Origin: Candidatus Saccharimonadales bacterium
GTDB taxonomy: Bacteria; Patescibacteriota; Saccharimonadia; Saccharimonadales; UBA10212
Direction of reading: 5' to 3'
NCBI GenBank assembly: GCA_038245195.1
Contig: JBBRSU010000004.1
Location: 1-61,889, forward strand
DNA length: 61,889 bases
Below the pieces are notes generated by a model, which saw only the letters and a program-made list of their open reading frames with translations, was not told the DNA's origin and made no database searches. A program made the translations under genes and the position numbers. Below are positions 8,673 to 40,160 of the stretch, piece by piece (positions within the stretch are counted from its first letter, which is position 1; the number at the start of each line of letters is the position of its first letter).

Positions 8673-9256
8673 CTAACTAACCCCAGTAGATAGACGATCG
8701 TAAATATAAATATCCAGACAATGTCTAAAAAGTGCCAAAAAAGACTTAGCATCGTTAAGCGTTTGAGGTTGAACTTGGTCAGCCCCAATTGCCTGACGCG
8801 GACAATCATTACGCCCATCCAGATAAGCCCTGCGGTTATGTGTAGTCCGTGGGTCCCCACCAAGCTAAAGAAAGCCGATAAAAAACCGCTGCGACGCCAA
8901 CTATTACCTTCGTTGTACAAATGGCTAAACTCATGAAGTTCTAAACCCAAAAAAGCCAATCCTAGTACAAAAGTTAAACTGAAAAAAACCAAAACCGCTT
9001 GTCGCTGGCCTTGCCGGGCAGCCAGGATCGCCAAGCCACACAAAAAACTACTGGTCAGAAGAATTAAGGTTTCGGCCAGCACAAAAGACAGGCTAAATAA
9101 ACTCTGAGCTCCAGGCCCGCCATAGGTGTTGTGCCTTAATACTGCGAAAGCTGCGAAAAAACTAGCGAATAATATGCAGTCTGTCATCAAATAAACCCAA
9201 AAACCAAAAAGCGTTTTGGATTCAGCTTCTTGTTCAATGTCGGTCGATTGACTCAT
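8669..9256 (-). CDS. cyoC: Cytochrome o ubiquinol oxidase subunit III
   Basis: 195 aa and five TM helices. Heme-copper oxidase subunit III-like HFLDIVWIFIF motif. Start and stop overlap the neighbouring cyo genes. Confidence 0.85.
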   Translation of the reverse strand: MSQSTDIEQEAESKTLFGFWVYLMTDCILFASFFAAFAVLRHNTYGGPGAQSLFSLSFVLAETLILLTSSFLCGLAILAARQGQRQAVLVFFSLTFVLGLAFLGLELHEFSHLYNEGNSWRRSGFLSAFFSLVGTHGLHITAGLIWMGVMIVRVRQLGLTKFNLKRLTMLSLFWHFLDIVWIFIFTIVYLLGLVR

Positions 9257-14737: not shown

Positions 14738-15859
14738 TTAATTAAACTGGCTTAAAGCACTATTTATTTGGCTGTAATCGTCAATGCCGGCACTCGGGAT
14801 CAGGGCACTTTGACCAAAATAAGTCGTATAGCTATCAAGATAATTTCGCGAATTCAAACTCCTTAGGCTTAATGACTGGAGCTTGGAGTCGGGAATCGAA
14901 TTAAAAAGTCCAAAAAGTGGTCGTGCTTCGGAAGCAGTAACATCGGTTTTAATATTACTTGCCACCGCATTTAAAACTCGAGCATTAGTTCTGGGATTGA
15001 GAACCAGCTTCCAATTAAGTTTCTGTTTGATAGCACTAAGCACTTGGCGTTGATGCTGGGTTCGATCGAAGTCTGCCTGGGCAAAACCATATGAACCTTC
15101 GGCATCACCCCTGGCCCTAGTTAGGTTAAGGGCGGTTTGACCGTCGAGTTGTGCTTGGCCGTTTGTCAGTTTCAGGGGCCCACCATCAGCCAGGCTGATG
15201 TTAGGATCAAACAAGCCTCTAGGGTCAGTACTTTGTATATTTACCGTAACTCCGCCCAACGCATTTACCGTTTGCTTGACCGTTGCATAATTAACAAGGA
15301 CATAGTAGTTAATGGGGGTTTGAAAATTAGTCGTTATGATTTGTTCCAGCAAGCCTATACCATTATCCTTATAAGCTTCGTTAATTTTTCCATAGTCGTA
15401 ACCGGGAATTTTCACATATAGGTCCCTGGGGATACTTAGCATATAACCCGATTTGTTAGACGGGTTCATACTTAATAGAATAATTGAATCAGTCAGGCTG
15501 GCACCGGCATGCCCTGGATCATCAACTGAATATCCAACTAGCAAAACATTAACACGGCCATTACCAGTGGCCTTAAGTGAGCCACCACTAATTAAGTTAT
15601 ATAAACTACCGCTACCAAATAGCTTTTGACTAGCTGAGCTAATATTCCTCGCGTCCCAGACTCCAAGCAACACTACTCCAATAAACAGCGATAGCAATAA
15701 GCTAAAAATAATCTTTTTAACACGGCTTTTTGTTGTTTTAAGTTTAACAACGGGTCGGACTTCTCGAAGGCTAGATCTTGGGGAATATGAACTTACACTA
15801 TGTGGCAGATTGCGTCCGGTCTGGATAGGCAAGTCGGATTTTAAGCGGTTTTTAGCCAT
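14738..15859 (-). CDS. LytR-CpsA-Psr (LCP) family cell-wall glycopolymer transferase
   Basis: N-terminal TM anchor. NVLLVGYS...SLTDSIILLSMN...SIPRDLYV...GKINEAY and LTRAR...DFDRTQHQRQV LCP motifs. Confidence 0.85.
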   Translation of the reverse strand: MAKNRLKSDLPIQTGRNLPHSVSSYSPRSSLREVRPVVKLKTTKSRVKKIIFSLLLSLFIGVVLLGVWDARNISSASQKLFGSGSLYNLISGGSLKATGNGRVNVLLVGYSVDDPGHAGASLTDSIILLSMNPSNKSGYMLSIPRDLYVKIPGYDYGKINEAYKDNGIGLLEQIITTNFQTPINYYVLVNYATVKQTVNALGGVTVNIQSTDPRGLFDPNISLADGGPLKLTNGQAQLDGQTALNLTRARGDAEGSYGFAQADFDRTQHQRQVLSAIKQKLNWKLVLNPRTNARVLNAVASNIKTDVTASEARPLFGLFNSIPDSKLQSLSLRSLNSRNYLDSYTTYFGQSALIPSAGIDDYSQINSALSQFN

Positions 15860-15869
15860 TAAATACCTA

Positions 15870-16865
15870 TTATGCCGAAGGCAGATGAACTATGAAAGAC
15901 GAACCTTTGCCAATGGCGGTTTTAACCTCGATGTGGCCGCCGTGAACTGTAGTGATTTTCTTGGCAATAGCTAAGCCTAGTCCGTAACCACCAGCCGTTT
16001 GTTTTGATCTGGAATCATCGGTTCGATAAAAGCGTTCAAAAATCATTGGCAGATCAGTCTGCTTAATCCCCCTACCTTTGTCGGTTATGTCTATAAGCAC
16101 ATCACGATGCTGCTTACGACTAGTAATAATAACGCTACTTTTAGCGGAGCTATACTTAATTGCATTATCAATAAATATCGCAAAAAGTTCTACTAAACTT
16201 TCGGAGTCACCCTTAAGCCTATGGTCGTCTGATTTATCGATTAATCTAATGTTTTTTTGTTCGGCGGCTTTAGCTAAGCGATCAATTGCTAGAGAAACAA
16301 CTGTTTTAGAAGAAACATCTCTCGGATCTTCAATCCGGCCATTGCCGTTAGCTAAACGCAGTAGACCTTCTGAAAGGGTTTTGAGCTTTGCCACCTCTTC
16401 CAGATTACTTTTGATTAAGGCAATAGCTTCTTCCTTTTTCAGTCCAGGGTTTCGTATGGCCACTTCGTTTTCGGTTTGAATGGCGGTAAGCGGTGTCCTG
16501 AGCTCATGCGAAGCATCAGCTGCGAAGCGAGTTTGCGATATTAAAGCTTGCTCAATTGGCTCCAGGGTTCGTCGGGCTAACCAATAACTAGCCACACCAC
16601 CGCCAACTAAAACTAACACATTAAACAATACCAAGTTAGCCTTTAAATGGCCACGATCTTCGCTTAGCTGACGTTGTCTTAGACGTGAATAATTATCGGA
16701 GTCACCGGGTCCTAAAAAATTATTAAAATAACCTATTTCGTGATTGACGTTACGTTGTAAATCTCCAGCCGAGACTCGAAACAAAAGTCCGCTAAACATT
16801 AGACTGACGGCCATAATAATCGCTAAGTACCATAGGGTTAAGCGTAAAGCGGCTGAATGAAACAT
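15870..16865 (-). CDS. Sensor histidine kinase, minimal two-TM input, no HAMP/PAS
   Basis: H-box ADASHELRTPLTAI about 15 residues after TM2. N box DNAIKYS. G boxes DKGRGI and GGYGLGLAI. Confidence 0.9.
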   Translation of the reverse strand: MFHSAALRLTLWYLAIIMAVSLMFSGLLFRVSAGDLQRNVNHEIGYFNNFLGPGDSDNYSRLRQRQLSEDRGHLKANLVLFNVLVLVGGGVASYWLARRTLEPIEQALISQTRFAADASHELRTPLTAIQTENEVAIRNPGLKKEEAIALIKSNLEEVAKLKTLSEGLLRLANGNGRIEDPRDVSSKTVVSLAIDRLAKAAEQKNIRLIDKSDDHRLKGDSESLVELFAIFIDNAIKYSSAKSSVIITSRKQHRDVLIDITDKGRGIKQTDLPMIFERFYRTDDSRSKQTAGGYGLGLAIAKKITTVHGGHIEVKTAIGKGSSFIVHLPSA

Positions 16866-17542
16866 TAGCGTCTGTCCTCCAACACATATCCGAAACCGCG
16901 ATTGGTTTGTAGAAGCGGTTTGCCGAAAGGTTTGTCTATCTTATTTCTTAAATAACCAATATATACTTCAACTGTGTTTGGTAGAACATCAGCGTCAAAA
17001 TCCCAGACATGAGAAATAATATTATCTTTTGATAAAACTCGGCCAGAATTTCGAATTAGGTATTCCAGAAGAGCAAACTCTTTAGCGCTTAAATCGATTG
17101 TTTTCCCAGCCCGTTTTACTTCATAACTAATCGTATCTAGACTTAAATCGGCAATTTTTAGAGTGTTAGACTGGGCTTGTTGGGGTCGCCTCAATAAGGC
17201 CTTAATCCTGGCAAGTAGCTCTTCAAAAGAAAACGGTTTAATAAGATAGTCATCCGCCCCAGAGTTCAGGCCTTCGACTCTATCCCTTACTTGATCCTTG
17301 GCGGTTAGCATTAATATTGGCGTATGTATCCCTGCCTCCCTGACCTGACGGCATACTTCCATACCGTCAATAGTGCCAGGCAGCATTCGGTCAATTATCA
17401 TGAGATCGTAGGCTTCGTTTAAGGCCGAGCCTAGAGCAGAGTCGGCATCGTACTCCACATCTACGGCATAATTCTCTTGGACTAAACCTTGTTTTAGAGC
17501 GTTGGCAATTTTGTGCTCGTCTTCAACTACAAGTATTCTCAT
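16865..17542 (-). CDS. OmpR/PhoB-family response regulator
   Basis: MRILVVEDEH, the phospho-acceptor region IIDRMLPG, LTAKD, and a winged-helix C-terminus (LSAKEFALLEYL...GFGY). The stop overlaps the HK start. Confidence 0.92.
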   Translation of the reverse strand: MRILVVEDEHKIANALKQGLVQENYAVDVEYDADSALGSALNEAYDLMIIDRMLPGTIDGMEVCRQVREAGIHTPILMLTAKDQVRDRVEGLNSGADDYLIKPFSFEELLARIKALLRRPQQAQSNTLKIADLSLDTISYEVKRAGKTIDLSAKEFALLEYLIRNSGRVLSKDNIISHVWDFDADVLPNTVEVYIGYLRNKIDKPFGKPLLQTNRGFGYVLEDRR

Positions 17543-17549
17543 TAAGCCT

Positions 17550-17583
17550 ATTCTACTTCAATCAGACTGAAAATTAGCTGAAT
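17550..17583 (-). promoter_or_regulatory. Candidate promoter/operator of the chromosomal RR-HK-LCP operon: ATTCAG-N5-TTTCAG direct repeat plus TAGAAT
   Basis: Minus-strand reading is ATTCAGCTAATTTTCAG (plus coordinates 17567-17583). The second half-site starts 17 bp upstream of TAGAAT (17550-17555), which ends 7 nt before the ATG at 17542. The geometry matches the four island sites. Confidence 0.45.
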
Positions 17584-29300: not shown

Positions 29301-29990
29301 TTATTCTGATTTATAGCCAGGGAAAGAATCGGATTTTGAGTGGTCTTCGTCTATGCCCATATGTTTTAGTGTCTTTTCAAAAGCCTCGACCATCGGTTCT
29401 GGACCAGATATATAATAAATTGGTTCTTCCATTTTTTTACCAAATTCTTTTAGCGTCTCTTCATCAATTTTCCTATCGCCTGTAAAGTAGGTAATGTTAA
29501 AAGTTTTGTGTTTTTCGCTTAAGGTGTCTAGTTCGTCGCGAAAGGGGATGTCATGCTCATCGCGGTTGGCATAAAGTAGTTCAACATTTATATTTTTCCC
29601 ATCATGATCGAGTTGCTTAAGAATAGAGTAGAAGGGCGTAATGCCAATTCCGCCAGCCACAAATATATAATTTTTAGCAGTGTCATCAACCACAAATTTG
29701 CCTTTTGGTAGGTCGGCCTCGATTCCCTGGCCCGGTTTAAGTCCTTGTAAAGCATTTTTAAACGAACTCCCCTTATCCAAACTTATGCGGGTGGTAATTT
29801 TAATGTTTTTTTCATATGGGGCACTGGAAATTGTAAACCAACGTTCCTCACCCCTATCATCAGGATTAGCGTGTGGCAGTGTGTAGTGCATATATTGTCC
29901 AGCCTGCCATGAAGTAGGCTCCTCTGGCTCGAATATAAATGTTTTAGTTCCGACAAACTCACTAAGTTGTTCCTTTAAGCGTAGTTTCAT
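29301..29990 (-). CDS. Ferredoxin-NADP reductase-like FAD/NAD(P)-binding oxidoreductase (stand-alone)
   Basis: RWFTISSAP (RxYS-type FAD motif) and FVAGGIGITP (NAD(P)-binding motif). 229 aa. Confidence 0.75.
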   Translation of the reverse strand: MKLRLKEQLSEFVGTKTFIFEPEEPTSWQAGQYMHYTLPHANPDDRGEERWFTISSAPYEKNIKITTRISLDKGSSFKNALQGLKPGQGIEADLPKGKFVVDDTAKNYIFVAGGIGITPFYSILKQLDHDGKNINVELLYANRDEHDIPFRDELDTLSEKHKTFNITYFTGDRKIDEETLKEFGKKMEEPIYYISGPEPMVEAFEKTLKHMGIDEDHSKSDSFPGYKSE

Positions 29991-30197
29991 ACTTCCGTAA
30001 CCTGTTTAACTATCAAAGTATAGCAAAGAGCAAAAAATATAACTGGCTTAGCATAACGATCGAGCACGGTAATAGTTAACATGGCTACATATTTTACTTA
30101 AGTTCTAATCTACTATGGCTGAGCATATAGGTCTGGTACGGTTTAACAGGATAATTTGAGACAAATGAGACACGAAACAGCTATATTTTGAAGTGTC

Positions 30198-30700
30198 TCA
30201 CTTTTGCTTGGCTTCGGCTGGACTATTGCCGTGTTTTATAGCCTTACTTCTAGGTTTTTTGGGATTATCTGCAGTAGTTAACTTTTCACCAGTTTCAGGA
30301 TCAAGCCCATGCTCTTTGCAGTAATCATCTCGACGCTGTAGCGCACGTTCTTGCAGCAAATCAAGTAAGCTGATGTATTGACCAACACTAACCCCGTGGT
30401 ATAGCAGCTTTGATTCTATTTCCGGGAACTTCTCGAACCATTGCTTTGTGTATGCGTAAGCATAGGGATGCCCGTGGAGAGTTTCTTCGTTTTCCCATTC
30501 GGTGTCCTTGTCTTTGCCAATTTCACCAGTTACATACTTAACTTCATGGCCATATAGGGCCCACGCACGCTTTTAGTGTCGCTTTTCTATAGGATCTACC
30601 GGTTCTTGGTCGTGATCTTTGATTACGTGCATTATGAACTCTATATCAGCAGTTTTACGGTAGTTGGGATATAGATCGTGACGGTCGAACAGTTGAGTAC
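30198..30700 (-). pseudogene. Decayed gene of unknown function (5'-truncated, in-frame TAA)
   Basis: The minus-strand frame reads ...FDRHDLYPNYRKTADIEFIMHVIKDHDQEPVDPIEKRH*KRAWALYGHEVKYVTGEIGKDKDTEWENEETLHGHPYAYAYTKQWFEKFPEIESKLLYHGVSVGQYISLLDLLQERALQRRDDYCKEHGLDPETGEKL...AKQK*. The internal stop is at 30573-30575. There is no start codon for the 125-codon downstream part, and the frame is closed by a TGA just upstream of about 30700. Confidence 0.6.
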
Positions 30701-30726
30701 TATGCCATCAAGTACCTAGACGAACA

Positions 30727-30765
30727 TAAAAAGCGGTAGCAAATGCTACCGCTCTCGGTTTTTAC
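30727..30765. terminator. Orphan terminator-like hairpin at the probable left edge of the accessory block
   Basis: 9-bp perfect stem AGCGGTAGC (30732-30740) / GCTACCGCT (30745-30753) with loop AAAT. An A-run lies 5' and ctcggTTTTT lies 3'. On the minus strand the stem is followed directly by TTTTTAT. No intact gene reads into it from either side. Confidence 0.5.
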
Positions 30766-30820
30766 GCTATAAAGATCACTACCATAGACTGAAATAGGTC
30801 TGCGCGCTCTACCCAGCGAT

Positions 30821-30856
30821 ACTTTAAGCTACTTTTAAAGTTTCGTGCTATATAAT
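30821..30856 (+). promoter_or_regulatory. Island operator/promoter 1 (upstream of the RR): TTTAAG-N5-TTTAAA plus TATAAT
   Basis: TTTAAG 30823-30828, TTTAAA 30834-30839 (11-bp period) and TATAAT 30851-30856 (17 bp after the start of the second half-site). The ATG at 30863 lies 6 nt after the hexamer. Confidence 0.6.
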
Positions 30857-30862
30857 CAGTTT

Positions 30863-31540
30863 ATGAGAATACTTGTTGTTGAAGACGAGCATCGTATTGC
30901 ACAAGCCATAAAAGAAGGTTTAGAACAAGAGACCTATGCCGTAGATGTCTGTCATGACGGCGAAGATGGATACAATACTGCACGCTCTGATGACTACGAC
31001 CTGATTATTTTAGATGTCATGCTGCCTAGTATGGACGGCTTCGAAGTATGCAAAAAACTTCGAACTGCAAAAGATCACACACCAGTGCTTATGCTGACTG
31101 CAAAAGATCAAAATAAAGACGTTATACGTGGTTTAGACACCGGTGCCGACGATTACTTGCCAAAACCGTTCTCATTCGAAGTCTTGTTAGCCAGAATAAG
31201 AGCTTTGCTACGCCGTCCACATCAGGCAATCGGGGAGATACTTGAGGCAGGTAGTTTAACGTTAAACACTACATCCCACGAGGTAAAAAGGTCAGGAAGA
31301 ATTATCAAACTATCTAGTAAGGAATATGCCCTTCTTGAATATTTATTACGAAATAAAGGCAAGGTTTTAAGTAAGAACAATATCATGACCCATGTTTGGG
31401 ACTTTGATGCAGATATACTGCCAAACACAGTTGAGGTGTTCATTACCTACTTACGTGCAAAAATCGATAAGCCTTTCAAGGAACCAGAGCTAATAAGCAC
31501 TGTCCGTGGCTTTGGCTATAAGATAGGAGAAGCATCATGA
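30863..31540 (+). CDS. OmpR/PhoB-family response regulator (island paralogue)
   Basis: MRILVVEDEH, ILDVMLP, LTAKD and the winged helix LSSKEYALLEYL...LPNTVEVFITYLRAKIDKPF...GFGY. By eye about 60% identical to the RR at 16865-17542. I chose the ATG at 30863 over the GTG at 30845. Confidence 0.92.
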   Translation: MRILVVEDEHRIAQAIKEGLEQETYAVDVCHDGEDGYNTARSDDYDLIILDVMLPSMDGFEVCKKLRTAKDHTPVLMLTAKDQNKDVIRGLDTGADDYLPKPFSFEVLLARIRALLRRPHQAIGEILEAGSLTLNTTSHEVKRSGRIIKLSSKEYALLEYLLRNKGKVLSKNNIMTHVWDFDADILPNTVEVFITYLRAKIDKPFKEPELISTVRGFGYKIGEAS

Positions 31541-32574
31541 CTACAGACAAAGTGTTACGGTTTGCCCGTTCAACAACGGGTCGTTTGGCGATGACTTACT
31601 TAGGCATCATTATGCTGATGAGCATTGGCTTTAGCCTAGTTTTTTATAATACTTCAGCAGGTCAACTTGGACGGCAACTTCCACCTTCGTCTGTTTTTAA
31701 CCGCCCGTCACGAGACTTCCCCTCAGTATCACCAATAACAAATCGAGCCGAGATTGAAGCTTTCTTGCAACAACGAATCACTGAAGGCCGTGACGCACTG
31801 CGAATAAGGTTAATTGGACTAAACGTGATGGCTTTGATCGGCGGCGGAGTTCTTAGCTATGTGCTTGCCAGGCGGACGCTGAAACCAATTGAAGAAGCGA
31901 TGGAAGCACAATCCCAGTTTATTGGAGATGCATCGCATGAGCTGAGGACTCCGCTGACTGCGATCAAGACAACCAATGAAGTAGCTTTACGCAAACCAAA
32001 GCTTAACCTGACTGATGCCAAGGAAATCATTAAGCAGAATACTGATGATGTCTCGAAACTTCAGGCACTAACAGATGGACTACTGAGATTGGTTAACGAT
32101 AAGAGCTCAGATCATAGCTTAAAGCCTATTTCCCTGCAAGAGGTAGTAGCTGAGGCTATGAACCAAGTGGTTCAATTAGCTCAAAATAAAAACATTTCGG
32201 TTAATGATCAAGTACCCAATATAAAGGTACTTGCTAATAAACAAAGCCTCATACAATCAATCACCATATTGCTAGATAATGCCATAAAATACAGTGAGCC
32301 TAAAACAGTCGTCACGCTGAGCGGATCATCAGATGCTAAGCTTGCCCATTTGAAGGTCAGTGATCAAGGCATAGGCATCCGTGCAGCCGATCTTCCTCAT
32401 ATCTTTAAACGGTTCTATCGTGCCGACCGGTCACGGAATAAGCAACAATATGACGGTTACGGGTTGGGTCTATCGATAGCAGATAAGTTAGTCAAGCAAC
32501 AACACGGTGAGATTTCAGTGGATAGTACGCCAGGTCACGGTGCGACTTTCACTATAAAATTGCCTCTGGCCTAA
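31537..32574 (+). CDS. Sensor histidine kinase, minimal two-TM input (island paralogue)
   Basis: Two TM helices separated by a loop of about 55 aa. GDASHELRTPLTAI follows shortly after TM2 with no HAMP. DNAIKYS, DQGIGI and GYGLGLSI are present. ATGA overlap with the RR gene. Confidence 0.9.
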   Translation: MTTDKVLRFARSTTGRLAMTYLGIIMLMSIGFSLVFYNTSAGQLGRQLPPSSVFNRPSRDFPSVSPITNRAEIEAFLQQRITEGRDALRIRLIGLNVMALIGGGVLSYVLARRTLKPIEEAMEAQSQFIGDASHELRTPLTAIKTTNEVALRKPKLNLTDAKEIIKQNTDDVSKLQALTDGLLRLVNDKSSDHSLKPISLQEVVAEAMNQVVQLAQNKNISVNDQVPNIKVLANKQSLIQSITILLDNAIKYSEPKTVVTLSGSSDAKLAHLKVSDQGIGIRAADLPHIFKRFYRADRSRNKQQYDGYGLGLSIADKLVKQQHGEISVDSTPGHGATFTIKLPLA

Positions 32575-32609
32575 GCTTTAAGCAAACTTTAAAGTTCCGT
32601 TGGTATCGT
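32575..32609 (+). promoter_or_regulatory. Island operator/promoter 2 (upstream of the ABC permease)
   Basis: TTTAAG 32577-32582, TTTAAA 32588-32593 (11-bp period) and TATCGT 32604-32609 (16 bp). A 42-nt leader with an AGGA-type SD precedes the ATG at 32652. Confidence 0.55.
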
Positions 32610-32651
32610 TGTGGCATCACTTCAATAAATAAAAGGAATTTAGGATAATGC

Positions 32652-34019
32652 ATGAATCCAGTATCTAGAGGAATAAGAAACGCCTTTCGTAATTCAATAC
32701 GAACGTTCTCCATTGTAGTTATCTTAGGATTAAGCGTCGGGTTAGCACTTTCTATGTTAGTTGCTCGGCAGGCCGTTCAAGAAAAAATTGATTCGGTTAA
32801 AACTTCGATAGGTAATACTGTCAGCATAGCTCCTGCTGGCTCTCAAGGTTTTCAAGGTGGTGGTGAACCCTTGACTACTGAGCAACTGAGCAAGTTAGAA
32901 ACAGTAAACCACGTTACTGGTGTTACTCAATCACTCAGCGATCGTCTCACGAGCGATACAAGCAATTTAACCTCAGCAATAGATGCCGGTAGCCTCGGAA
33001 ACCGTCAAGCTGGAAATTCTGGAGTAGGCTTTCAGCAAGCTCCACCACAGGGTGGCAATCAACAGCCAGGAGGTAGCTCCAATCAAGAAATTACCCGTAC
33101 ATTTACTCCTCCAATAATTGTGACTGGCATTAATGACCTATCAAAAGTTTCAGCATACGGTGGTGATACGGTCTCGTTTACGAGCGGTCAAGCACTGGAT
33201 CCAACAAAGGATGAAGAGGTAGCCGTGGTTGGTAAAGCCTTGGCTGAAAAAAATAATCTAAGTGTCGGCTCTACTTTTACTGCTTACGACAAAACTATCA
33301 AGGTAGTTGGTATATACGATACCGGTAATACCTTCTCTAATGCCGGTTTAATAATGTCGCTTGCTACACTACAAAGACTTTCTAACCAAGCTGGGGATGT
33401 TACTAGTGCTACAGCTACCGTTGACTCCATCGATAACATTGACTCTGCGGTTACTGCCATCAAGAGTGCGTTGGGGGACAAGGCTGATGTTACGAACTCG
33501 CAGGAGAGTGCCAAGTCCACGATTGCTCCACTAGAGAACGTAAAAAGTATTTCCCTGTTCAGCTTACTTGGCGCACTAGCTGCTGGGTCGGTAATCATCC
33601 TTCTGACTATGATGATGATTGTCCGTGAACGCCGACGCGAAATAGGTGTCATGAAAGCCATCGGCTCTTCCAACTTAAAAACTATGTTCCAGTTCATGAG
33701 TGAGGCAGTAACGCTCACACTACTCGGATTAATTGTCGGTCTTGTGATTGGAGTAGCTGCCTCGAACCCAATTACAAAAGTATTGGTCAACAACAGTACG
33801 ACTAGTACGACTCAAACAATTGGTCGGTCTGGACAAGGTGGTCCAGGAGGGTTTGGACGTAACAGCTTAACTAGCGTCCGGAATGTTAAAGCCTCAGTGG
33901 GCTTGGATATTCTCGGCTATGGTGTTGCCAGTGCGTTCATTATCGCTATTGTCGGTAGCGCACTGCCCGCACTATTCATTAGCAAAATAAGACCAGCAGA
34001 AGTAATGAGGGCTGAATAA
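32652..34019 (+). CDS. MacB/FtsX-type ABC transporter permease with a large extracytoplasmic domain
   Basis: 455 aa. One N-terminal TM, a periplasmic domain of about 270 aa (with Gly/Gln-rich inserts), then three C-terminal TM helices with the FtsX-like region RRREIGVMKAIGSS. Confidence 0.85.
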   Translation: MNPVSRGIRNAFRNSIRTFSIVVILGLSVGLALSMLVARQAVQEKIDSVKTSIGNTVSIAPAGSQGFQGGGEPLTTEQLSKLETVNHVTGVTQSLSDRLTSDTSNLTSAIDAGSLGNRQAGNSGVGFQQAPPQGGNQQPGGSSNQEITRTFTPPIIVTGINDLSKVSAYGGDTVSFTSGQALDPTKDEEVAVVGKALAEKNNLSVGSTFTAYDKTIKVVGIYDTGNTFSNAGLIMSLATLQRLSNQAGDVTSATATVDSIDNIDSAVTAIKSALGDKADVTNSQESAKSTIAPLENVKSISLFSLLGALAAGSVIILLTMMMIVRERRREIGVMKAIGSSNLKTMFQFMSEAVTLTLLGLIVGLVIGVAASNPITKVLVNNSTTSTTQTIGRSGQGGPGGFGRNSLTSVRNVKASVGLDILGYGVASAFIIAIVGSALPALFISKIRPAEVMRAE

Positions 34020-34020
34020 T

Positions 34021-34704
34021 ATGTTACAAGTTACAGATTTAAAGAAGACTTTTAAGTCCGGCGATACTAAGGTCGCGGCTATAGATGGTATAAGTTTCGG
34101 CGTACCAGACGGACAGTTCGCATCAGTTATTGGTAAGAGTGGTAGTGGTAAAAGTACCCTGCTTAGCTTACTAGGCGCACTAGATAAGCCGACAAGCGGA
34201 CATATTACTGTCGGCGATAAAGATATAACTAAGTTGAACGATCACAAACTCATAAAATATCGCTGCGAAAAGATCGGTTTTGTTTTCCAAAGTTACAATC
34301 TTGTGCCAAACCTAACAGCAATTGAAAATGTGATGTTGCCAATGGAGTTTGCCGGACTTTCCAAAAAGCAACGGTTGCAGCGAGCGAAGCTGTTACTTAA
34401 CCAAGTTGGCTTGGACGACAACAAGCAAAAGCGTAAGCCCGGACGACTAAGTGGGGGTGAGCAACAAAGAGTTGCAATTGCCCGAGCACTTGGTAATAAA
34501 CCAAAGCTAATCCTGGCGGATGAGCCAACTGGTAACCTTGATTCTCAAACCGGTAAAATGATCTTCGACTTGCTGCACGATCTAGCAAAAAGTGAAAATA
34601 CTACTATCGTAGTTGTAACTCACGATCTAGAAATCGCCGGAAAGACAGACAAAACCTTCCAGCTTACTGACGGTAAGTTAGCTCCGGTAGGAGCGAGAGT
34701 ATGA
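34021..34704 (+). CDS. ABC transporter ATP-binding protein (MacB/LolD-like)
   Basis: Walker A GKSGSGKST, Q-loop, signature LSGGEQQRVAIARAL, Walker B LILADEPTGNLD, and H-loop VTHD. Confidence 0.95.
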   Translation: MLQVTDLKKTFKSGDTKVAAIDGISFGVPDGQFASVIGKSGSGKSTLLSLLGALDKPTSGHITVGDKDITKLNDHKLIKYRCEKIGFVFQSYNLVPNLTAIENVMLPMEFAGLSKKQRLQRAKLLLNQVGLDDNKQKRKPGRLSGGEQQRVAIARALGNKPKLILADEPTGNLDSQTGKMIFDLLHDLAKSENTTIVVVTHDLEIAGKTDKTFQLTDGKLAPVGARV

Positions 34705-35183
34705 ACGAGCACGATCATAACAAGGGAGGATCGGGCCTATTTGCTAAGGTTGGTGCTGGTTTGTTAGTCGTACTCATAGTTGCTGTACTAAGCTTTCTTG
34801 GCGGTATGCAGTACCAAAAGGGTAAAAAGTCCGCAACAACGGACCAAACTGCTTCGGGAGGATCCTCAAGCCAAGGATTTGGTGGTTTTCAAGGTGGCCC
34901 AGGAGGTGGTGGGCGTACGAATATAGTACGAGGTCAAGTTACCGCAATTAGTTCAACGAGCATATCCGTGCAAGATAGCAGGAGTAATTCCACGACTACT
35001 CTCGATATAACTTCTGACACAACGATTACAGACAATGGCCAGACTGCCAGCCTCGATAGTATTAAGGTTGATGATAATGTAGTGGTGCGCCCAAATAGTT
35101 CCAACTCAAAACAGGCCGATCAAATTATACTGAATCCCCAAGTACCCTCAGGTACACCTAGTTCAAGTACTACAACAAACTAA
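34701..35183 (+). CDS. Membrane-anchored Gly-rich / Ser-Thr-rich beta-type protein (DUF5666-like guess)
   Basis: 160 aa. N-terminal TM, then the SSQGFGGFQGGPGGGGR linker, then VRGQVTAISSTSISVQD...ITDNGQTASLDSIKVDDNVVV. 4-nt overlap with the ATPase gene. Confidence 0.6.
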   Translation: MNEHDHNKGGSGLFAKVGAGLLVVLIVAVLSFLGGMQYQKGKKSATTDQTASGGSSSQGFGGFQGGPGGGGRTNIVRGQVTAISSTSISVQDSRSNSTTTLDITSDTTITDNGQTASLDSIKVDDNVVVRPNSSNSKQADQIILNPQVPSGTPSSSTTTN

Positions 35184-35217
35184 CTTTAAACTGTTTTTAA
35201 GGTTAGTTTACTAAGCT
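35183..35217 (+). promoter_or_regulatory. Island operator/promoter 3 (upstream of the island LCP gene)
   Basis: TTTAAA 35185-35190, TTTAAG 35196-35201 (11-bp period) and TAAGCT 35212-35217 (16 bp). The ATG at 35226 lies 8 nt after the hexamer. Confidence 0.55.
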
Positions 35218-35225
35218 GTGTGCAT

Positions 35226-36311
35226 ATGGACGAGCGGCAAACCATTGAGCGTACACGGCTGAGTTATTTGAAGATGCCTTCACTGAGGCATACGTTGAGA
35301 TTAGTCTTAGTAATTACGTTGACAGCAATAATTACAATCGGAGGATGGGTCGGCTGGAAAGTCTATGCCAGTGCTTCAAGAATTACTGGCAACAAGAATC
35401 CTCTGAGTCTGGTCAGTGCATTCTCGCCTGTTGACCTTAAGGAAGTAAATGGCCGTACTAATATATTGTTGGCTGGATATTCTAAAGATGATCCGGGTCA
35501 TAGTGGGGCGGAACTCACTGACTCAATAATGATACTCAGCATGAATCAGTCTACAAAGTCAGCGGTTGTTATTAGCGTGCCACGTGATTTGTACGTAAAT
35601 GTACCTAGCTATGGGTATAGCAAAATAAATGCAGCCTACGAATATGGAGAAAGTGATAACTTTTCGGAGGCTGGCTATGCTAATGGTGGCATGGGACTGC
35701 TTGAGAAAACAATAAAACAAACACTGGGCGTAGATATAAGTTATTACGGCTTGATAAATTACACCGCCTTCAAGTCAGCAGTTGATGCCGTTGGCGGAAT
35801 TACCATTACTATCAGTAGCAGTAACCCGCGCGGTATATACGACTCTAATACGGGTATTAAGTTTGCTAATGGGAGCGTTACGCTAGATGGACAGACAGCA
35901 CTCAATTTAGCTCGATCACGTGGCGATTCGTATTATTCCTACGGTTTTCCAAATAGTGACTTCGATCGTACGAAATACCAACAGGCTATGCTATTAGCAC
36001 TTAAGGGTAAGGCCAGTAATGCAAGCGTGATAGCAAATCCGCTAAAGATTGGAGAATTAGCTGATTCTGTGGGCGATAACGTTAAGACCAATATGCAAAT
36101 TAACGAAATGGAAACTCTATATTCAGTCATGAAAGATGTCAACGACAACAATATAGAGACAATTACGCTAAACAATATTGAGGGAACAAATCTGTTGATT
36201 GACTACCGTACACTGAATGGTCAATCAGCCCTAATCCCAGCTCTGGGTCTAAATAACTTTTCGGCGATCGATAACGCAATCGATAATTTGCTTGCGCCCA
36301 AAACACAATAA
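35226..36311 (+). CDS. LytR-CpsA-Psr (LCP) family transferase (island paralogue)
   Basis: TM anchor. NILLAGYS...ELTDSIMILSMN...SVPRDLYV...SKINAAY, and LARSRGD...DFDRTKYQQ. The alternative GTG start at 35220 would lie only 2 nt after the -10-like hexamer. Confidence 0.85.
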   Translation: MDERQTIERTRLSYLKMPSLRHTLRLVLVITLTAIITIGGWVGWKVYASASRITGNKNPLSLVSAFSPVDLKEVNGRTNILLAGYSKDDPGHSGAELTDSIMILSMNQSTKSAVVISVPRDLYVNVPSYGYSKINAAYEYGESDNFSEAGYANGGMGLLEKTIKQTLGVDISYYGLINYTAFKSAVDAVGGITITISSSNPRGIYDSNTGIKFANGSVTLDGQTALNLARSRGDSYYSYGFPNSDFDRTKYQQAMLLALKGKASNASVIANPLKIGELADSVGDNVKTNMQINEMETLYSVMKDVNDNNIETITLNNIEGTNLLIDYRTLNGQSALIPALGLNNFSAIDNAIDNLLAPKTQ

Positions 36312-36314
36312 CGA

Positions 36315-36350
36315 CCTTTTAAGTAATGTTTAAGCTTGTTTGTCTAACCT
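36315..36350 (+). promoter_or_regulatory. Island operator/promoter 4 (upstream of the beta-lactamase-like gene)
   Basis: TTTAAG 36318-36323, TTTAAG 36329-36334 (11-bp period) and TAACCT 36345-36350 (16 bp). The ATG at 36357 lies 6 nt after the hexamer. Confidence 0.55.
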
Positions 36351-36356
36351 ACTTAT

Positions 36357-37208
36357 ATGATGAAACGCATAGCATTGTTTGGCATCGCAATTATCACCGT
36401 TACGCTAGTCTCTTATTACGTTGTTCATGCTTTACCAGTAAAATCTGCGGGTAACCTAACAGCAACGAGCGTAGTAGCTAGTGCAGAGGATATACCAGCT
36501 GATGTACCACGTGACGTAGCCACAGACCTTAATACCGTCATTGAAAAATACTCGAATTTATCCATTGCGGTATCTTTAACCGATTTGGAGAATAATCAGA
36601 CCTACAATGCAGGTGCTGTTGATACGACGTTCAAAGGAGCGAGTACTATAAAGGTATTTACCGCAGTGTACTATATGCATCAAGTTGAAGCTGGTAAAGC
36701 CAGCTTGACGCATCAAATTGACGGTGTAAGCGCCCGTACGCTTCTGCAACGGATGCTTCAAAATAGTGACAACGACGCTTGGGCAGCCATCACTACCTAC
36801 CTTGGCAGCAGTAATATCCAGTCATATGCCCAAAGTATTGGTCTGACTTCATTTTACGGTTACGACTACAATGCGATCAAAGCTTCTGACTACGCGAAGT
36901 TGCTAGTTAAGTTGTACAAAGGTGAGCTTATTAGTGACGAGAATCGCGCTACCCTATATTCCTTCATGCAAGACACTGATAATGACACCCTCATCCCAGC
37001 TGCTCTACCAAACGATGCCACGGTCTATCACAAATGGGGAGATTTGTGGGGCAATTTGCATGATATTGCCATAGTCCAATACCAAGGACACTCCTTTGCG
37101 CTTGTTATTTTTACAAATAATACTGATGGAACCCAGGCTCTTTACTCTACTCAAGTAGCAGCCATCAAAGAAGTTACGAAGACAGCTATAATAGACCTCA
37201 AGTATTAA
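36357..37208 (+). CDS. Class A beta-lactamase-like serine hydrolase (atypical motifs)
   Basis: N-terminal anchor/signal. SxxK is present as ASTIK and SDN as NSDND. The third box reads HKWG instead of K(T/S)G, and no clear ExxLN omega-loop motif is visible. Confidence 0.65.
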   Translation: MMKRIALFGIAIITVTLVSYYVVHALPVKSAGNLTATSVVASAEDIPADVPRDVATDLNTVIEKYSNLSIAVSLTDLENNQTYNAGAVDTTFKGASTIKVFTAVYYMHQVEAGKASLTHQIDGVSARTLLQRMLQNSDNDAWAAITTYLGSSNIQSYAQSIGLTSFYGYDYNAIKASDYAKLLVKLYKGELISDENRATLYSFMQDTDNDTLIPAALPNDATVYHKWGDLWGNLHDIAIVQYQGHSFALVIFTNNTDGTQALYSTQVAAIKEVTKTAIIDLKY

Positions 37209-37260
37209 AATATACAAAGTCCTAGACTTCCAACTCTTTCGCGGTACCCTGTACCTTGCA

Positions 37261-38547
37261 ATGGAAACAACACAAGAACTCAAATTCTGTCTCTATGCTC
37301 GGAAGTCGAGTGAATCTGACGAACGCCAAGCAATGTCTATCGACTCTCAAATCAAGGAAATGCAAGCTATGGCAACTCGCGAGGAGCTGAACGTCGTCGT
37401 CATAAAAAAAGAGAGCTTCTCGGCAAAGGAATCAGGGCACAGGCCTGTATTCAATGAGTTGCTGCACGACCTGAGGAATGGCAAGTACAATGCAATTCTG
37501 ACGTGGGCTCCCGACCGACTAAGCAGAAATGCAGGAGACTTAGGATCGCTCGTAGATTTAATGGACTTGAATCGACTTCAGCGCATCCGCACATTTGGAC
37601 AGAGCTTCAGCAACACGCCAAACGAGAAATTCTTACTGATGATTCTGTGCTCACAAGCCAAACTCGAGAACGATAATCGAGGTATCAACGTAAAGCGCGG
37701 CATACGTGCCAAATGCGAAATGGGCTGGCGACCAGGTGCAGCACCCATTGGTTATGTCAATCGAGCATTCGGTGGTGTTAGAGATATTGTGCTTGATACT
37801 GATCGAGCACCGGTTGTAAAAGAAATGTTTGAGCGATCGGGATTACTACACCAAAGCGGCAGAACAATAAAAGATTGGCTGGACGAAACAGGCTTTAAGA
37901 CAAAGTCAGGTGCAGAATTGTCCCTTAGTCAGATATACAGAATCATGACCAATCCTTTCTACTACGGATACTTCGAGTATCCTGCTGGTGGCCCGCTATA
38001 TAAAGGCATGCACCCACCAATCATTACTAAAGAGTTATTCGACATGGTTCGGTCACGGATGGACTCACTTGTACCCGAAAAACCTGCATGGGGATCGAAA
38101 CAATTCCCATTTAAGCATCTATTCTACTGCGGGTCGTGTGGTTCTAGGCTAACTGTCGAGGAGCACTTCAAAAAAAGAGTAGATGGTGGCAAGAACAGGC
38201 ATGTTTACTACCGTTGCACTAAGTCAACTAAAGATCCCGACTGTCCCGAACGTTCGATCACTACCATTATGATAACCGAGCAAATTTTAGTGATGATAGA
38301 AGCATCAGACTTTGACGATATCGAGCCGACCGAGAAGCTATTCAATAGGATTGAGCAACACAAACGAATAACGAGCCAATTAATCAAAGATCATGGACTA
38401 CATCTCTCTGAGCGAGCTCACTTCAGGAACTATGCTAGCTATGTGCTCAAGCAGGGCACTATAAGCGAGCAAGACGGACTTCTAAGGGGTCTAAATGTCC
38501 CATTATTCGTCAAAAACAAGCAAATCTACCGCAGATTAACCGACTAA
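37261..38547 (+). CDS. Large serine recombinase (resolvase catalytic domain, recombinase domain and zinc ribbon)
   Basis: YARKSSESDERQAMSIDSQ (catalytic Ser region), APDRLSRN, the recombinase-domain GW/PxGY pattern, and CGSCGSRL...YYRCTK...CPE zinc-ribbon cysteines. Confidence 0.88.
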   Translation: METTQELKFCLYARKSSESDERQAMSIDSQIKEMQAMATREELNVVVIKKESFSAKESGHRPVFNELLHDLRNGKYNAILTWAPDRLSRNAGDLGSLVDLMDLNRLQRIRTFGQSFSNTPNEKFLLMILCSQAKLENDNRGINVKRGIRAKCEMGWRPGAAPIGYVNRAFGGVRDIVLDTDRAPVVKEMFERSGLLHQSGRTIKDWLDETGFKTKSGAELSLSQIYRIMTNPFYYGYFEYPAGGPLYKGMHPPIITKELFDMVRSRMDSLVPEKPAWGSKQFPFKHLFYCGSCGSRLTVEEHFKKRVDGGKNRHVYYRCTKSTKDPDCPERSITTIMITEQILVMIEASDFDDIEPTEKLFNRIEQHKRITSQLIKDHGLHLSERAHFRNYASYVLKQGTISEQDGLLRGLNVPLFVKNKQIYRRLTD

Positions 38548-38590
38548 ACAATAAGAGTCGAATTAACGACCCTTATTGTTAATATTTCTC
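38547..38590 (+). terminator. Hairpin terminator after the recombinase gene
   Basis: AACAATAAG-a-GTCG (38547-38560) pairs with CGAC-c-CTTATTGTT (38567-38580). That gives 13 bp with one mismatch and a 6-nt loop, followed by a T-rich tract. Confidence 0.55.
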
Positions 38591-38647
38591 TCTTTGCTGA
38601 TGCAAAAGCAGAATTAGGGACTTAGGTCTAAAATTCTGCTGTCGCAT

Positions 38648-38674
38648 CTGGCTGGGGAGGAGGGATTCGAACCC
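38648..38674. repeat. Distal copy of the 27-bp direct repeat, identical to the 3' end of tRNA-Gln (att-like scar)
   Basis: CTGGCTGGGGAGGAGGGATTCGAACCC at 38648-38674 is identical to 39994-40020. The flanking bases differ on both sides. The sequence beyond it cannot be folded into the rest of a tRNA. Confidence 0.85.
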
Positions 38675-38806
38675 GCACTAATTTACTACCATCGGATCTA
38701 ACGACTCGCCCTATACTAGCTTACATCTCACCCCTGTCAAAATGATTATAGTAAAGGTTGAGTTCAGTCTTTAAGAGTTCAAATTTCTGCTTGCCTATAG
38801 TGTGGT

Positions 38807-38826
38807 AATTGGATATAATTGGATAT
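38807..38826 (+). repeat. Perfect tandem duplication AATTGGATAT x2 in the fic promoter region
   Basis: The units at 38807-38816 and 38817-38826 are identical. Their junction creates TATAAT (38814-38819), 24 nt upstream of the fic ATG. Confidence 0.8.
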
Positions 38827-38843
38827 AGAAGGAATAGCCGATT

Positions 38844-39896
38844 ATGGGTAGACTGGACGAACGACTCGAAAAACTATCATTGTCAACAGTAACTCTGCTG
38901 AGTCAGATTGATAATCTGAACGGTCAGTGGATTGGTGGAGCACGATTGAGCCCCCAAGCCCTCGGCCGACTAAAGCGTTCCGTGCTGGTGACGTCGACTG
39001 GTGCTTCCACCCGTATTGAAGGCGCAAAATTATCAGACGAAGAAGTGGAGAAGCTCATGCGGGGCTTGTCCATGCAAAAGCTAATCGATCGTGATGCCCA
39101 AGAGGTACGAGGCTATTACGAAATACTTGCTACCGTTTTCGATTCTTGGCAAGACATTGAGCTCACCGAGAGTAGTATTAAGAACCTGCATTCGCAGCTT
39201 CTGAAGTATTCAACCAAAGATGAACGGCAGCGTGGTGAATACAAGAAATTAGAGAATAAGGTGGTGGCGACAGATGTTGCAGGTAAGGTAGTAGGTACCA
39301 TCTTTGAAACGACTGCAGCCTATCTGACCCCAAAGGAAATGAGCGAGCTGGTTGATTGGACAAGAACAAAGTTAGCTGAAAAGGCGGATCATCCGCTTCT
39401 GGTTATTGCGAACTTCATTATTGAATTTCTAAAGATCCACCCATTTCTTGATGGGAATGGCCGTCTATCTCGTATTCTCACCAATCTACTGATGCTTCAA
39501 GTCGGGTATCAATACATGCCCTACGTATCTCATGAAAAGTTCATAGAAGATAACAAAACGGAATATTATATTGTTCTACGGAAAAGTCAGACTACTTTTA
39601 GGGCAGCAGATGAAACCATAGCACCATGGGCTGCATTCTTTCTAGAAATTGCTCAAGCACAAGCTAGGCAGGCAATCGCGTTATTGTCTGCTGAATCAAT
39701 CGAAAAACTCCTTTCACCTAACCAACTACTGGTCTGGCAGTACATTCAAACAGTAGACGAAGCAAGAACACAAGATATTACTGAAGCAACTAGCGTTGCC
39801 CGTCCTACCGTGCGCCAGGCTGTTGAGCGACTTCTAACACTCAAAAAGATAGAACGAATTGGTCAAGGAAGAACTACTCGTTATAGAAAGATATAG
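38844..39896 (+). CDS. Class II Fic-domain protein (AMPylase-type motif) with an N-terminal inhibitory motif and a C-terminal winged HTH
   Basis: The Fic motif HPFLDGNGRLSR matches HxFx(D/E)GNGRxxR. STRIEG upstream matches the (S/T)xxxE(G/N) inhibitory helix. The C-terminus ARPTVRQAVERLLTLKKIERIGQGRTTRY is wHTH-like. SD GAAGGAA is present. Confidence 0.88.
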   Translation: MGRLDERLEKLSLSTVTLLSQIDNLNGQWIGGARLSPQALGRLKRSVLVTSTGASTRIEGAKLSDEEVEKLMRGLSMQKLIDRDAQEVRGYYEILATVFDSWQDIELTESSIKNLHSQLLKYSTKDERQRGEYKKLENKVVATDVAGKVVGTIFETTAAYLTPKEMSELVDWTRTKLAEKADHPLLVIANFIIEFLKIHPFLDGNGRLSRILTNLLMLQVGYQYMPYVSHEKFIEDNKTEYYIVLRKSQTTFRAADETIAPWAAFFLEIAQAQARQAIALLSAESIEKLLSPNQLLVWQYIQTVDEARTQDITEATSVARPTVRQAVERLLTLKKIERIGQGRTTRYRKI

Positions 39897-39912
39897 GGAA
39901 GAGGGACTCGAA
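39893..39912. repeat. Degenerate third copy of the tRNA-Gln 3'-end sequence
   Basis: ATAGGGAAGAGGGACTCGAA matches CTGGGGAGGAGGGATTCGAA (39998-40017) at 16 of 20 positions. It overlaps the fic stop codon. Confidence 0.4.
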
Positions 39913-39940
39913 ATACCCCACCCCCGTTAAGATGTCTTTA

Positions 39941-39977
39941 CAAAAATAATAGACCGTTGCATAGCAATACGGTCTAT
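39941..39977 (-). terminator. Rho-independent terminator downstream of tRNA-Gln
   Basis: 9-bp stem ATAGACCGT (39949-39957) / ACGGTCTAT (39969-39977). On the minus strand it is followed by TATTTTTG. Confidence 0.65.
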
Positions 39978-39994
39978 CTCTGTTAAATACCTGC

Positions 39995-40069
39995 TGGCTG
40001 GGGAGGAGGGATTCGAACCCCCGAATGCCAGTACCAAAAACTGGTGCCTTACCACTTGGCCACTCCCCA
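39995..40069 (-). tRNA. tRNA-Gln (anticodon UUG), CCA encoded
   Basis: Manual cloverleaf: acceptor UGGGGAG/CUCCCCA with the U1-A72 pair and G73 discriminator typical of bacterial tRNA-Gln. D arm GCC/GGC. Anticodon stem CCAGU/ACUGG with loop UUUUGGU (anticodon UUG). T arm GGGGG-UUCGAAU-CCCUC. 75 nt including CCA. Confidence 0.9.
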
Positions 40070-40120
40070 TCAATCGCACCCTTTATTTTAATTGCTTGTC
40101 GGGCTTTAGTCTACCACTGT

Positions 40121-40149
40121 TTTACAGATAAAGAGATTAATCTTATAAT
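40121..40149 (+). promoter_or_regulatory. Near-consensus sigma-70-type promoter upstream of the hydrolase-GT4-GT4-transporter block
   Basis: TTTACA (40121-40126), a 17-bp spacer, then TATAAT (40144-40149). The ATG at 40161 lies 11 nt after the -10. Confidence 0.55.
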
Positions 40150-40160
40150 AGAGGTTAAGA

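Follow-up and report, generated by a model that had tools for sequence, protein, structure and literature searches.

Gene Content and Organization of the Locus

Seven co-oriented genes of a candidate envelope stress or remodeling regulon have been analyzed in contig JBBRSU010000004.1 (assembly GCA_038245195.1) of a Candidatus Saccharimonadales bacterium; the whole stretch of 61,889 nt is referred to below as the window. The genes occupy positions 30863-37208 on the plus strand and encode, in this order, a response regulator (RR2), a histidine kinase (HK2), a permease, an ATP-binding cassette (ABC) ATPase, a 160-aa membrane-anchored protein, a LytR-CpsA-Psr glycopolymer transferase (LCP2) and a Beta-lactamase2-fold protein (Bla-like below), as verified by the list of open reading frames (ORFs) and by Pfam and NCBIfam scans (Table 1). 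We read this set, with a probability of about 60%, as the Saccharibacteria version of a Patescibacteria-wide, two-component-controlled MacB ABC module, to which two wall enzymes have been added.

The genes are tightly packed. Overlaps of 4 nt join RR2 to HK2 and the ATPase gene to the anchored-protein gene, the gap between the permease and ATPase genes is 1 nt, and the remaining intergenic spacers are 77, 36–42, and 45 nt, which agrees with the compact, co-oriented gene set described in the initial annotation, made from the sequence alone. Hairpins directly 5' of the RR operator, as in the window, are also found in two loci of other genomes, L008 and L009. The only Rfam family in 29500-40500 is tRNA-Gln, therefore no known leader RNA precedes the permease gene.

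Table 1. Features of the seven-gene module, its paralogous operon and the adjacent elements (RR, response regulator; HK, histidine kinase; TM, transmembrane segment; N5, any five nucleotides).
Feature	Coordinates	Strand	Remarks
Paralogous operon	14738..17542	-	RR1 16865-17542, HK1 15870-16865, LCP1 14738-15859
Operator of the paralogous operon	17556..17583	-	ATTCAG-N5-TTTCAG-N5-TTGAAG, then TAGAAT and a leaderless ATG
Terminator-like hairpin	30732..30753	+	precedes the module and insulates it from upstream DNA
Operator O1	30823..30839	+	TTTAAGCTACTTTTAAA; ends 23 nt before the RR2 ATG
RR2, OmpR-family response regulator	30863..31540	+	Pfam Response_reg 116 bits, Trans_reg_C 88 bits
HK2, histidine kinase	31537..32574	+	HisKA and HATPase_c only; two TM; no HAMP or PAS
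Operator O2	32577..32593	+	TTTAAGCAAACTTTAAA; 58 nt 5' of the permease start; leadered transcript
MacB-superfamily permease	32652..34019	+	Pfam FtsX 59.5 bits, MacB_PCD 34.3 bits, both over cutoff
ABC ATPase, MacB/LolD type	34021..34704	+	ABC_tran 120 bits; LolD 251 bits, under the cutoff of 308
Membrane-anchored 160-aa protein	34701..35183	+	one TM, Gly-rich linker, beta domain; start overlaps the ATPase stop (ATGA)
Operator O3	35185..35201	+	TTTAAACTGTTTTTAAG; 24 nt before ATG 35226 of LCP2
LCP2, LytR-CpsA-Psr glycopolymer transferase	35226..36311	+	listed ORF starts at GTG 35220; N-terminal TM anchor
Operator O4	36318..36334	+	TTTAAGTAATGTTTAAG; 22 nt before ATG 36357 of the Bla-like gene
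PBP-A-like protein, class-A beta-lactamase fold	36357..37208	+	Beta-lactamase2 116 bits; single N-terminal membrane anchor
Large serine recombinase	37261..38547	+	Resolvase, Recombinase and Zn_ribbon_recom; 52 nt 3' of the Bla-like gene; intact

Shared Operator and Promoter Structure

The direct repeat TTTAAG-N5-TTTAAG, with 11-bp spacing, is present in all four spacers, with at most one mismatch in each. A looser pattern, TTAAR-N5-TTTAAR, has six matches in the window compared to 0.90 expected (0 of 100 shuffled sequences reached six), and the four plus-strand sites, O1 to O4, mark exactly the four spacers. The shared operator that had been proposed to link the genes is thus borne out, and treating all seven genes as one operator-linked unit is supported by the site distribution.

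At the RR2, LCP2, and Bla-like promoters a –10-like hexamer is located 6–8 nt before the start codon (e.g., TATAAT at 30851-30856, 6 nt ahead of the RR2 ATG), hence these three transcripts look leaderless, and the repeat stands where the –35 element would be. The same geometry favors ATG 35226 rather than GTG 35220 as the start of LCP2. Sigma-70 consensus sites are no more common than in shuffled sequence; this fits –35-less promoters, being uninformative alone.

The operator is also found in related genomes, where the TTTAAG type is kept 5' of the RR and permease genes, of LCP (in L008) and of the Bla-like gene (in L009). Sites scoring at least 10 out of 12 against TTYMAG-N5-TTYMAG and ending 21–25 nt before the ATG precede 30 of 48 Saccharibacteria RR genes versus 11 of 860 other ORFs, and the operator scores of HK, ATPase, and anchored-protein genes, taken as internal controls, are at the background level. 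The permease sites of other species are mostly positioned 37–63 nt from the start codon. Across Patescibacteria, 26 of 66 two-component loci reach the same operator score and geometry.

Operators at the canonical distance also precede genes for UDP-glucose 6-dehydrogenase (four species) and OpgC/acyltransferase-3 (two species), and, among further nearby genes, those for a CPBP protease, YtxH, three Bla-like proteins, and one LCP. An ORF of the window at 20374-21573 (minus strand) is 35% identical to the operator-bearing OpgC/acyltransferase-3 of one of these loci (L049); no operator is seen 5' of this ORF.

Conservation in Saccharibacteria and Other Patescibacteria

The permease profile matches at least 307 species genomes, of which the best 80, nearly all Saccharibacteria, were examined. 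In 47 of the 66 loci having room for it, an RR-HK pair of the same family, identified with our own hidden Markov models (HMMs), lies within 8 kb of the permease-ATPase pair, and the anchored-protein gene directly follows the ATPase gene in 26 of 72. LCP and Bla-like genes each adjoin the module in 6 of 80 loci, in varied positions and orientations, and the complete gene order of the window occurs nowhere else among the 80. Co-conservation, put forward in the initial annotation as a test of the module, is therefore found for the core, the wall-enzyme genes being recurrent but variable additions. The initial assignment of an LCP gene and a penicillin-binding-fold gene to the module is supported in that both recur nearby in other species, some of them with an operator at the canonical distance.

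Three kinds of contig were reached via homologues of the anchored protein. L008 has the order RR-HK-permease-ATPase-anchored protein-LCP and no Bla-like gene; in L009–L012 the same core is followed by the Bla-like gene, LCP being absent. The more distant L014, L015, and L017 keep the permease-ATPase-anchored protein segment, and an LCP gene of L015 (47% identical) is transcribed divergently from the permease gene.

Full-length relatives of the kinase are retrieved by its profile across Patescibacteria. The arrangement RR-HK-HlyD-family membrane fusion protein (MFP)-ATPase-MacB permease-DUF5666-like anchored protein is observed in 19 of the 70 loci of the kinase survey, with a TTTCAG-type repeat 5' of RR and again between the HK and MFP genes. 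Given this gene content and the same operator type, the anchored protein belongs, together with the MacB-type transporter and its two-component system, to an old module of the superphylum, of which Saccharibacteria carry an MFP-less variant. In agreement with this, Pfam detects no HlyD-family MFP gene in 30863-37208, the third gene encodes an OB-like barrel instead of an MFP, and the locus does not qualify as a tripartite MacAB system.

Four of the surveyed Saccharibacteria loci contain a second, divergent ATPase and MacB-type permease pair a few kb from the main one; the scores of its ATPase resemble those of the MacAB-like type of other Patescibacteria. Contigs with the module are also present in metagenome-assembled genomes labeled Gammaproteobacteria, Limnocylindria, Nanoarchaeia, Burkholderiaceae, Dormiibacterota, or Acidoferrum (nine contigs and others), labels that likely reflect mis-binning or mislabeling. 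No description of the module was found in the literature on two-component systems, MacB, and DUF5666 in Saccharibacteria and Patescibacteria.

Two-Component System, Transporter and Anchored Protein

The hydropathy scan places the TM helices of HK2 at residues 17–37 and 88–111, with a 50-aa loop (residues 38–87) between them. As TM2 and the HisKA match are only about 12 residues apart, there is no room for a HAMP domain; Pfam identifies neither a sensor domain in the loop nor a cytoplasmic PAS domain, so the kinase is indeed of the two-TM, HAMP- and PAS-less type, as initially described. Conservation of the kinase is lowest in the loop, with 17–25% identity across 50 orthologues, compared to 62–77% for the TM helices and the linker. 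No NCBIfam equivalog model reaches its cutoff with RR2. The top NCBIfam matches of the pair include the PhoR/PnpS and PhoB models, all far below the equivalog cutoffs, and NCBIfam scans of Firmicutes relatives of the kinase, made in search of a characterized orthologue, returned generic matches only.

The permease has four TM segments by the hydropathy scan, an ectodomain of approximately 254 aa between TM1 and TM2, 53–77% identical outside a low-complexity insert, and a Ser/Thr/Gly-rich TM3-TM4 loop of 35 aa. In the profile search against PDB the best match is YtrF (2e-11), followed by MacB (1e-10) and then LolF and Spr0695, with LolC/E and FtsX lower. No BceB chain is present among the PDB sequence matches, and no HrtB chain at E <= 0.01; structures of HrtB exist in PDB. 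NCBIfam scores are far below the cutoffs, both for lolCE (57.8 bits versus 362) and for the FtsX models (23–34 bits versus 225–255). Hence the permease does not group with housekeeping LolCDE/FtsEX systems, and Pfam, hydropathy, and PDB matches agree on the 4-TM MacB type, rather than the 10-TM BceB type, as had been claimed. By sequence, the permease and the ATPase are assigned to the MacB superfamily (type VII ABC).

The anchored protein scores 19.2 bits with DUF5666 (PF18914), the cutoff being 27; three distant members of its family have a precomputed PF18914 match, and the Patescibacteria counterparts score 21 bits, which weakly suggests a distant DUF5666 relative. The initial description of a DUF5666-like protein coupled to the ATPase thus holds for the 4-nt ATGA overlap, the DUF5666 score itself being below the cutoff. 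In the AlphaFold2 (AF2) model a TM helix (residues 14–39) and a disordered segment (39–71) are followed by six strands (76–144) with pLDDT above 90. The Foldseek matches are weak (best E 9e-3) and come from OB-type or small-barrel folds, so that the domain is modeled as a small OB-like beta-barrel; the PDB sequence search yielded nothing meaningful. A relationship to membrane fusion proteins was considered and is not claimed, given the weak Foldseek matches.

Wall Enzymes

LCP2 scores 114.5 bits with PF03816 (LytR_cpsA_psr; cutoff 24.6) and 98.6 bits with TIGR00350 (cutoff 62.3), its TM segment being residues 20–46 by the hydropathy scan. The Bla-like protein has the SxxK (STIK), SDN, and KWG motifs, and the family alignment shows no variation at S96, K99, S137, N139, K226, and G228. 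The omega loop of the family is short, with no conserved Glu and no equivalent of Glu166, and the score with bla_class_A (NF033103) is 70 bits versus the cutoff of 200. The best PDB sequence match is the PBP-A protein Tll2115 (phmmer, 1e-10); in the Foldseek search the top ten matches are all PBP-A entries (best 4e-17), followed by LRA-5, for which the V166E mutant entry implies Val at position 166.

The Bla-like protein is therefore best read as a membrane-anchored, DD-peptidase-like penicillin-binding protein of the PBP-A type. The atypical class-A beta-lactamase-like protein of the initial annotation is retained as regards the fold and the SxxK/SDN/KxG motifs; the resemblance to PBP-A, the missing Glu166, and the low bla_class_A score speak against the rest. 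A “class A beta-lactamase” annotation is likely wrong here: the gene product probably acts on the wall, as a PBP-A-type peptidase, instead of conferring resistance. PBP-A of Thermosynechococcus elongatus (Tll2115; PDB 2j7v, 2j9o), the closest protein by both sequence and structure (TM-score 0.74–0.79), has the same class-A fold and SxxK, SDN, and KxG motifs and also no Glu166. It differs in that identity is only 22%, and that the window protein has KWG in place of KTG, a shorter omega loop, an N-terminal membrane anchor, and a promoter with the operator.

Paralogous Operon and Operator Specificity

The minus strand of the window carries a paralogous RR1-HK1-LCP1 operon (Table 1), on which the initial annotation is silent. 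Identity is 63% for RR1 and RR2, 42% for HK1 and HK2, and 41% for LCP1 and LCP2. An RR-HK-LCP operon is found in the window, in L107 and in L156, and the closest metagenomic relatives of LCP2 include such operons (L107, L098, L101), as well as a divergent arrangement (L106). An MprF-like gene (LPG_synthase_C; 13069-14730, plus strand) converges on LCP1, and a PAP2 phosphatase gene (17611-18507, plus strand) is divergent from RR1, with the operator in the 68-nt spacer between the two. Both the MprF-like and the PAP2 genes may belong to the RR1 regulon.

Of the two-component systems adjacent to the permease, 27 are RR2-like and 21 RR1-like. At the position where the operator types differ, 15 RR2-like loci have A (TTTAAG) and 2 have C in both half-sites, while 10 RR1-like loci have C (TYTCAG) and none has A in both; the association (15:2 versus 0:10) has a Fisher p of 8e-6, phylogeny not being taken into account. 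RR clades track the operator types across species, and the window carries both clades, each with the matching operator. In the recognition helix, F193/Y and T195/G change together with the operator type. That the TTTAAG variant could be unique to the clade of the window was also considered and rejected, since it is widespread among RR2-like systems. RR1 and RR2 are natural paralogues that seem to differ in specificity at a single position of the operator.

Genomic Context and Mobility

Several observations suggest movement of the extended cassette. The large serine recombinase gene immediately downstream (Table 1) may be linked to it; a decayed recombinase remnant of 32 residues follows the Bla-like gene in L009, L011, and L012, and a homologue, 46% identical, is located 1.3 kb downstream of the module in L050. 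Homology between the window, L008, and L009 starts at the RR operator, the genes upstream being unrelated. A pseudogene of approximately 170 codons with one in-frame stop (30000-30720, minus strand; no Pfam match) lies just 5' of the module, and was also counted in favor of mobility.

Other data speak against mobility. GC content is 0.42–0.46 across the module and 0.39–0.46 in the whole window, that is, not deviant; the core is conserved across the class, and the upstream DUF488 gene is shared with another locus (L004). The sole repeat matches 27 nt at the 3' end of tRNA-Gln and brackets a Fic gene alone, not the module, and no third copy bounding the module exists with up to three mismatches. 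Megablast of 30000-40100 against plasmids gave no match, and no empty site was found in relatives. The case for an island-borne module is weak, and the core is no peculiarity of an island, while mobility of the extended cassette is possible.

The tRNA-Gln repeat itself is present as exact copies at 38648-38674 and 39994-40020, the tRNA-Gln gene being located at 39995-40069 (minus strand). The 1.3-kb insert between the copies contains only a Fic/DOC-family gene with a C-terminal helix-turn-helix domain (38844-39896) and looks like a mini-island without its own integrase. At the other end of the window, a cytochrome c oxidase cluster (COX1, COX2, COX3, and UbiA-like; 7387-12107), syntenic with L015, points to an aerobic, environmental lineage of Saccharibacteria.

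Proposed Regulation and Function

In the proposed mechanism, phosphorylated RR2 would bind the repeats as a head-to-tail dimer and activate all four promoters, similar to PhoB/OmpR-type regulators. Four transcripts would result: leaderless RR2-HK2, providing autoregulation; the leadered permease-ATPase-anchored protein mRNA; leaderless LCP2; and the leaderless gene of the PBP-A-like protein. Since HK2 has just two TM helices, lacks HAMP and PAS, and has a 50-aa loop that is not conserved, it would sense within or at the membrane, with transporter state as a possible signal. The output would be envelope defense or remodeling, with the MacB-type mechanotransducing ABC system as the main effector. 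Powered by ATP, the permease may act mechanically on the external side of the membrane, on a lipid-linked wall intermediate or an amphipathic antimicrobial, assisted by the tethered OB-like partner. LCP2 would add more glycopolymer to the wall, and the PBP-A-like DD-peptidase would trim or cross-link stem peptides. The TTTCAG-type operator of RR1-HK1-LCP1 would keep the two regulons separate.

Some points weigh against this reading. It is only the position of the sites that speaks for activation by RR2 and not repression. The anchored protein is dispensable, as it is absent from many loci and frameshifted in L009–L012 (e.g., in L009 10001-10481, two tblastn segments cover residues 1–116 and 113–160), and the frameshift recurs in several independent assemblies of this lineage. 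LCP and Bla-like genes adjoin the module in a minority of species, with convincing operators at only some copies. In the surveys, HMM thresholds were set ad hoc, ORFs were called naively, and each scan was limited to its 80 best loci; the statistic for the association of RR clade with operator type ignores phylogeny. Finally, the system of YtrF, the closest solved relative of the permease, is thought to stimulate the lipid II cycle and not to confer resistance (PMC12772383).

Alternative Interpretations and Known Systems

The idea favored in the initial annotation is a Bce-like flux-sensing detoxification system, in which the transporter and its OB-like partner detect a peptide antibiotic on a lipid-linked precursor, signal to HK2 via TM contacts, and protect the target. 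We consider it possible, if doubtful. HK2 has no recognizable sensor domain, its TM helices being conserved and its loop variable; most species have the two-component system beside the transporter, whose operon is the principal operator target. The version from other Patescibacteria is, moreover, a MacAB-like MFP-ATPase-permease operon resembling Spr0693-0695 and YknXYZ, which are Gram-positive antimicrobial-peptide pumps. However, the permease, with four TM and a single FtsX domain, departs from the 10-TM BceB architecture, no BceB chain is matched in PDB, the HK2 loop of 50 aa is not a minimal linker, and the operator is a direct repeat, whereas BceR sites are inverted repeats. What is shared with the Bce paradigm, as represented by BceRS-BceAB (also GraRS-VraFG and pneumococcal TCS01-BceAB), is an OmpR-type regulator, a sensor-less kinase, an adjacent FtsX-family transporter whose operon is the main target of the regulator, and envelope-modifying genes in the wider regulon (PMC9020739, PMC11009047). 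In BceB the large extracellular domain is situated between TM7 and TM8, and not between TM1 and TM2 as in the window permease; the kinase with a 50-aa loop and no HAMP, the direct-repeat operator, the OB-like anchored partner, and the Patescibacteria host are further differences. The Bce/Psd-type resemblance reported initially therefore extends to the OmpR-type regulator and the conserved O2 site 5' of the permease, and not to the 10-TM permease or the length of the kinase loop; lacking these two defining features, the module falls outside the Bce family. The main rival is housekeeping envelope biogenesis, where the substrate of the ABC system is an endogenous surface component, or the system promotes the lipid II cycle in the manner of YtrBCDEF, and wall synthesis is matched by the two-component system to growth or host attachment, and not to toxins. 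The wide distribution of the permease-ATPase pair (at least 307 species genomes), the highly conserved ectodomain, and the biosynthetic character of the inferred regulon members (LCP, DD-peptidase, UDP-glucose dehydrogenase, acyltransferase) are all consistent with it, as is the best PDB match, to YtrF of Bacillus subtilis (PDB 9o9x, 2e-11), whose YtrBCDEF system is tied to the lipid II cycle and stimulates cell-wall synthesis (PMC12772383). Still, the YtrF similarity is confined to the TM2-TM3 region, YtrBCDEF is controlled by the GntR-family repressor YtrA and not by a two-component system, and its operon is composed differently. Autoregulation of a two-component system that mainly targets a transporter is more usual in inducible defense, and the neighborhoods are highly variable; a purely housekeeping role is rather unlikely.

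A PhoPR-like switch, by which phosphate-rich wall polymers are replaced by uronic-acid polymers under phosphate limitation, would explain the PhoR/PnpS and PhoB models among the top NCBIfam matches, the 11-bp-spaced direct repeat in place of –35, the operator at UDP-glucose dehydrogenase genes in four species, and the linkage of LCP genes to the system. It is nevertheless very unlikely, since all these NCBIfam scores are far under the equivalog cutoffs, a cytoplasmic PAS is absent from HK2, neither pst nor pho genes are seen beside the module in loci with listed gene content, and the main target is a MacB-type exporter. Least credible is a mobile beta-lactam resistance island, that is, a working beta-lactamase induced via the two-component system and moved by the serine recombinase. 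Its support comes from the Beta-lactamase2 fold with intact SxxK, SDN, and KxG and from the intact recombinase 52 nt downstream, decayed in L009, L011, and L012; it is contradicted by the lack of a Glu166 equivalent, the short omega loop, the bla_class_A score, and the nearest sequence and structure matches, PBP-A and then LRA-5 with Val at 166, as well as by the absence of flanking repeats and the ordinary GC content.

The preferred reading, a two-component-controlled MacB module, has partial counterparts among characterized systems. Gram-positive MacAB-like pumps (Spr0693-0695 of Streptococcus pneumoniae, PDB 5xu1, and YknWXYZ of B. subtilis) have a 4-TM MacB-type permease with the MacB_PCD ectodomain and a separate ATPase, and other Patescibacteria share the MFP-ATPase-permease order of Spr0693-0695, after a homologous two-component system. 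In contrast to these pumps, the Saccharibacteria version lacks an MFP, has the gene order permease-ATPase, and comes with its own two-component system and a third subunit resembling DUF5666, and the similarity to Spr0693-0695 is low (5xu1, E 9e-8 over approximately 80 residues). The heme detoxification system HssRS-HrtAB also combines a two-component system with a 4-TM MacB-type permease and an ATPase, and its regulator acts at a direct repeat. HK2 lacks both the HAMP domain and the large extracytoplasmic sensor that characterize HssS; the permease matches no HrtB chain at the threshold given above, and nothing in the examined loci connects the module to heme.

Biological Implications

Patescibacteria have very small genomes with few regulators. 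The analysis defines for them a conserved two-component system whose operator can be read, whose promoter geometry is fixed, and whose regulon, centered on a MacB-type transporter and wall enzymes, can be reconstructed. Some Saccharibacteria strains are now genetically manipulable, and the module gives concrete reporters and knockout targets in this group.

As a tentative extension, which we hold loosely, the two-component system, the MacB-type transporter, and the OB-like protein could constitute Patescibacteria-wide envelope surveillance, with the transporter complex reporting the lipid-linked wall-precursor cycle or wall-active peptides of the host to the sensor-less kinase. Saccharibacteria might then have split it into two insulated paralogous regulons, with TTTAAG and TTTCAG operators, recruiting LCP, the PBP-A-like peptidase, UDP-glucose dehydrogenase, and acyltransferase. 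If this is true, such a surveillance system would be the main means by which reduced-genome epibionts adjust their surface.

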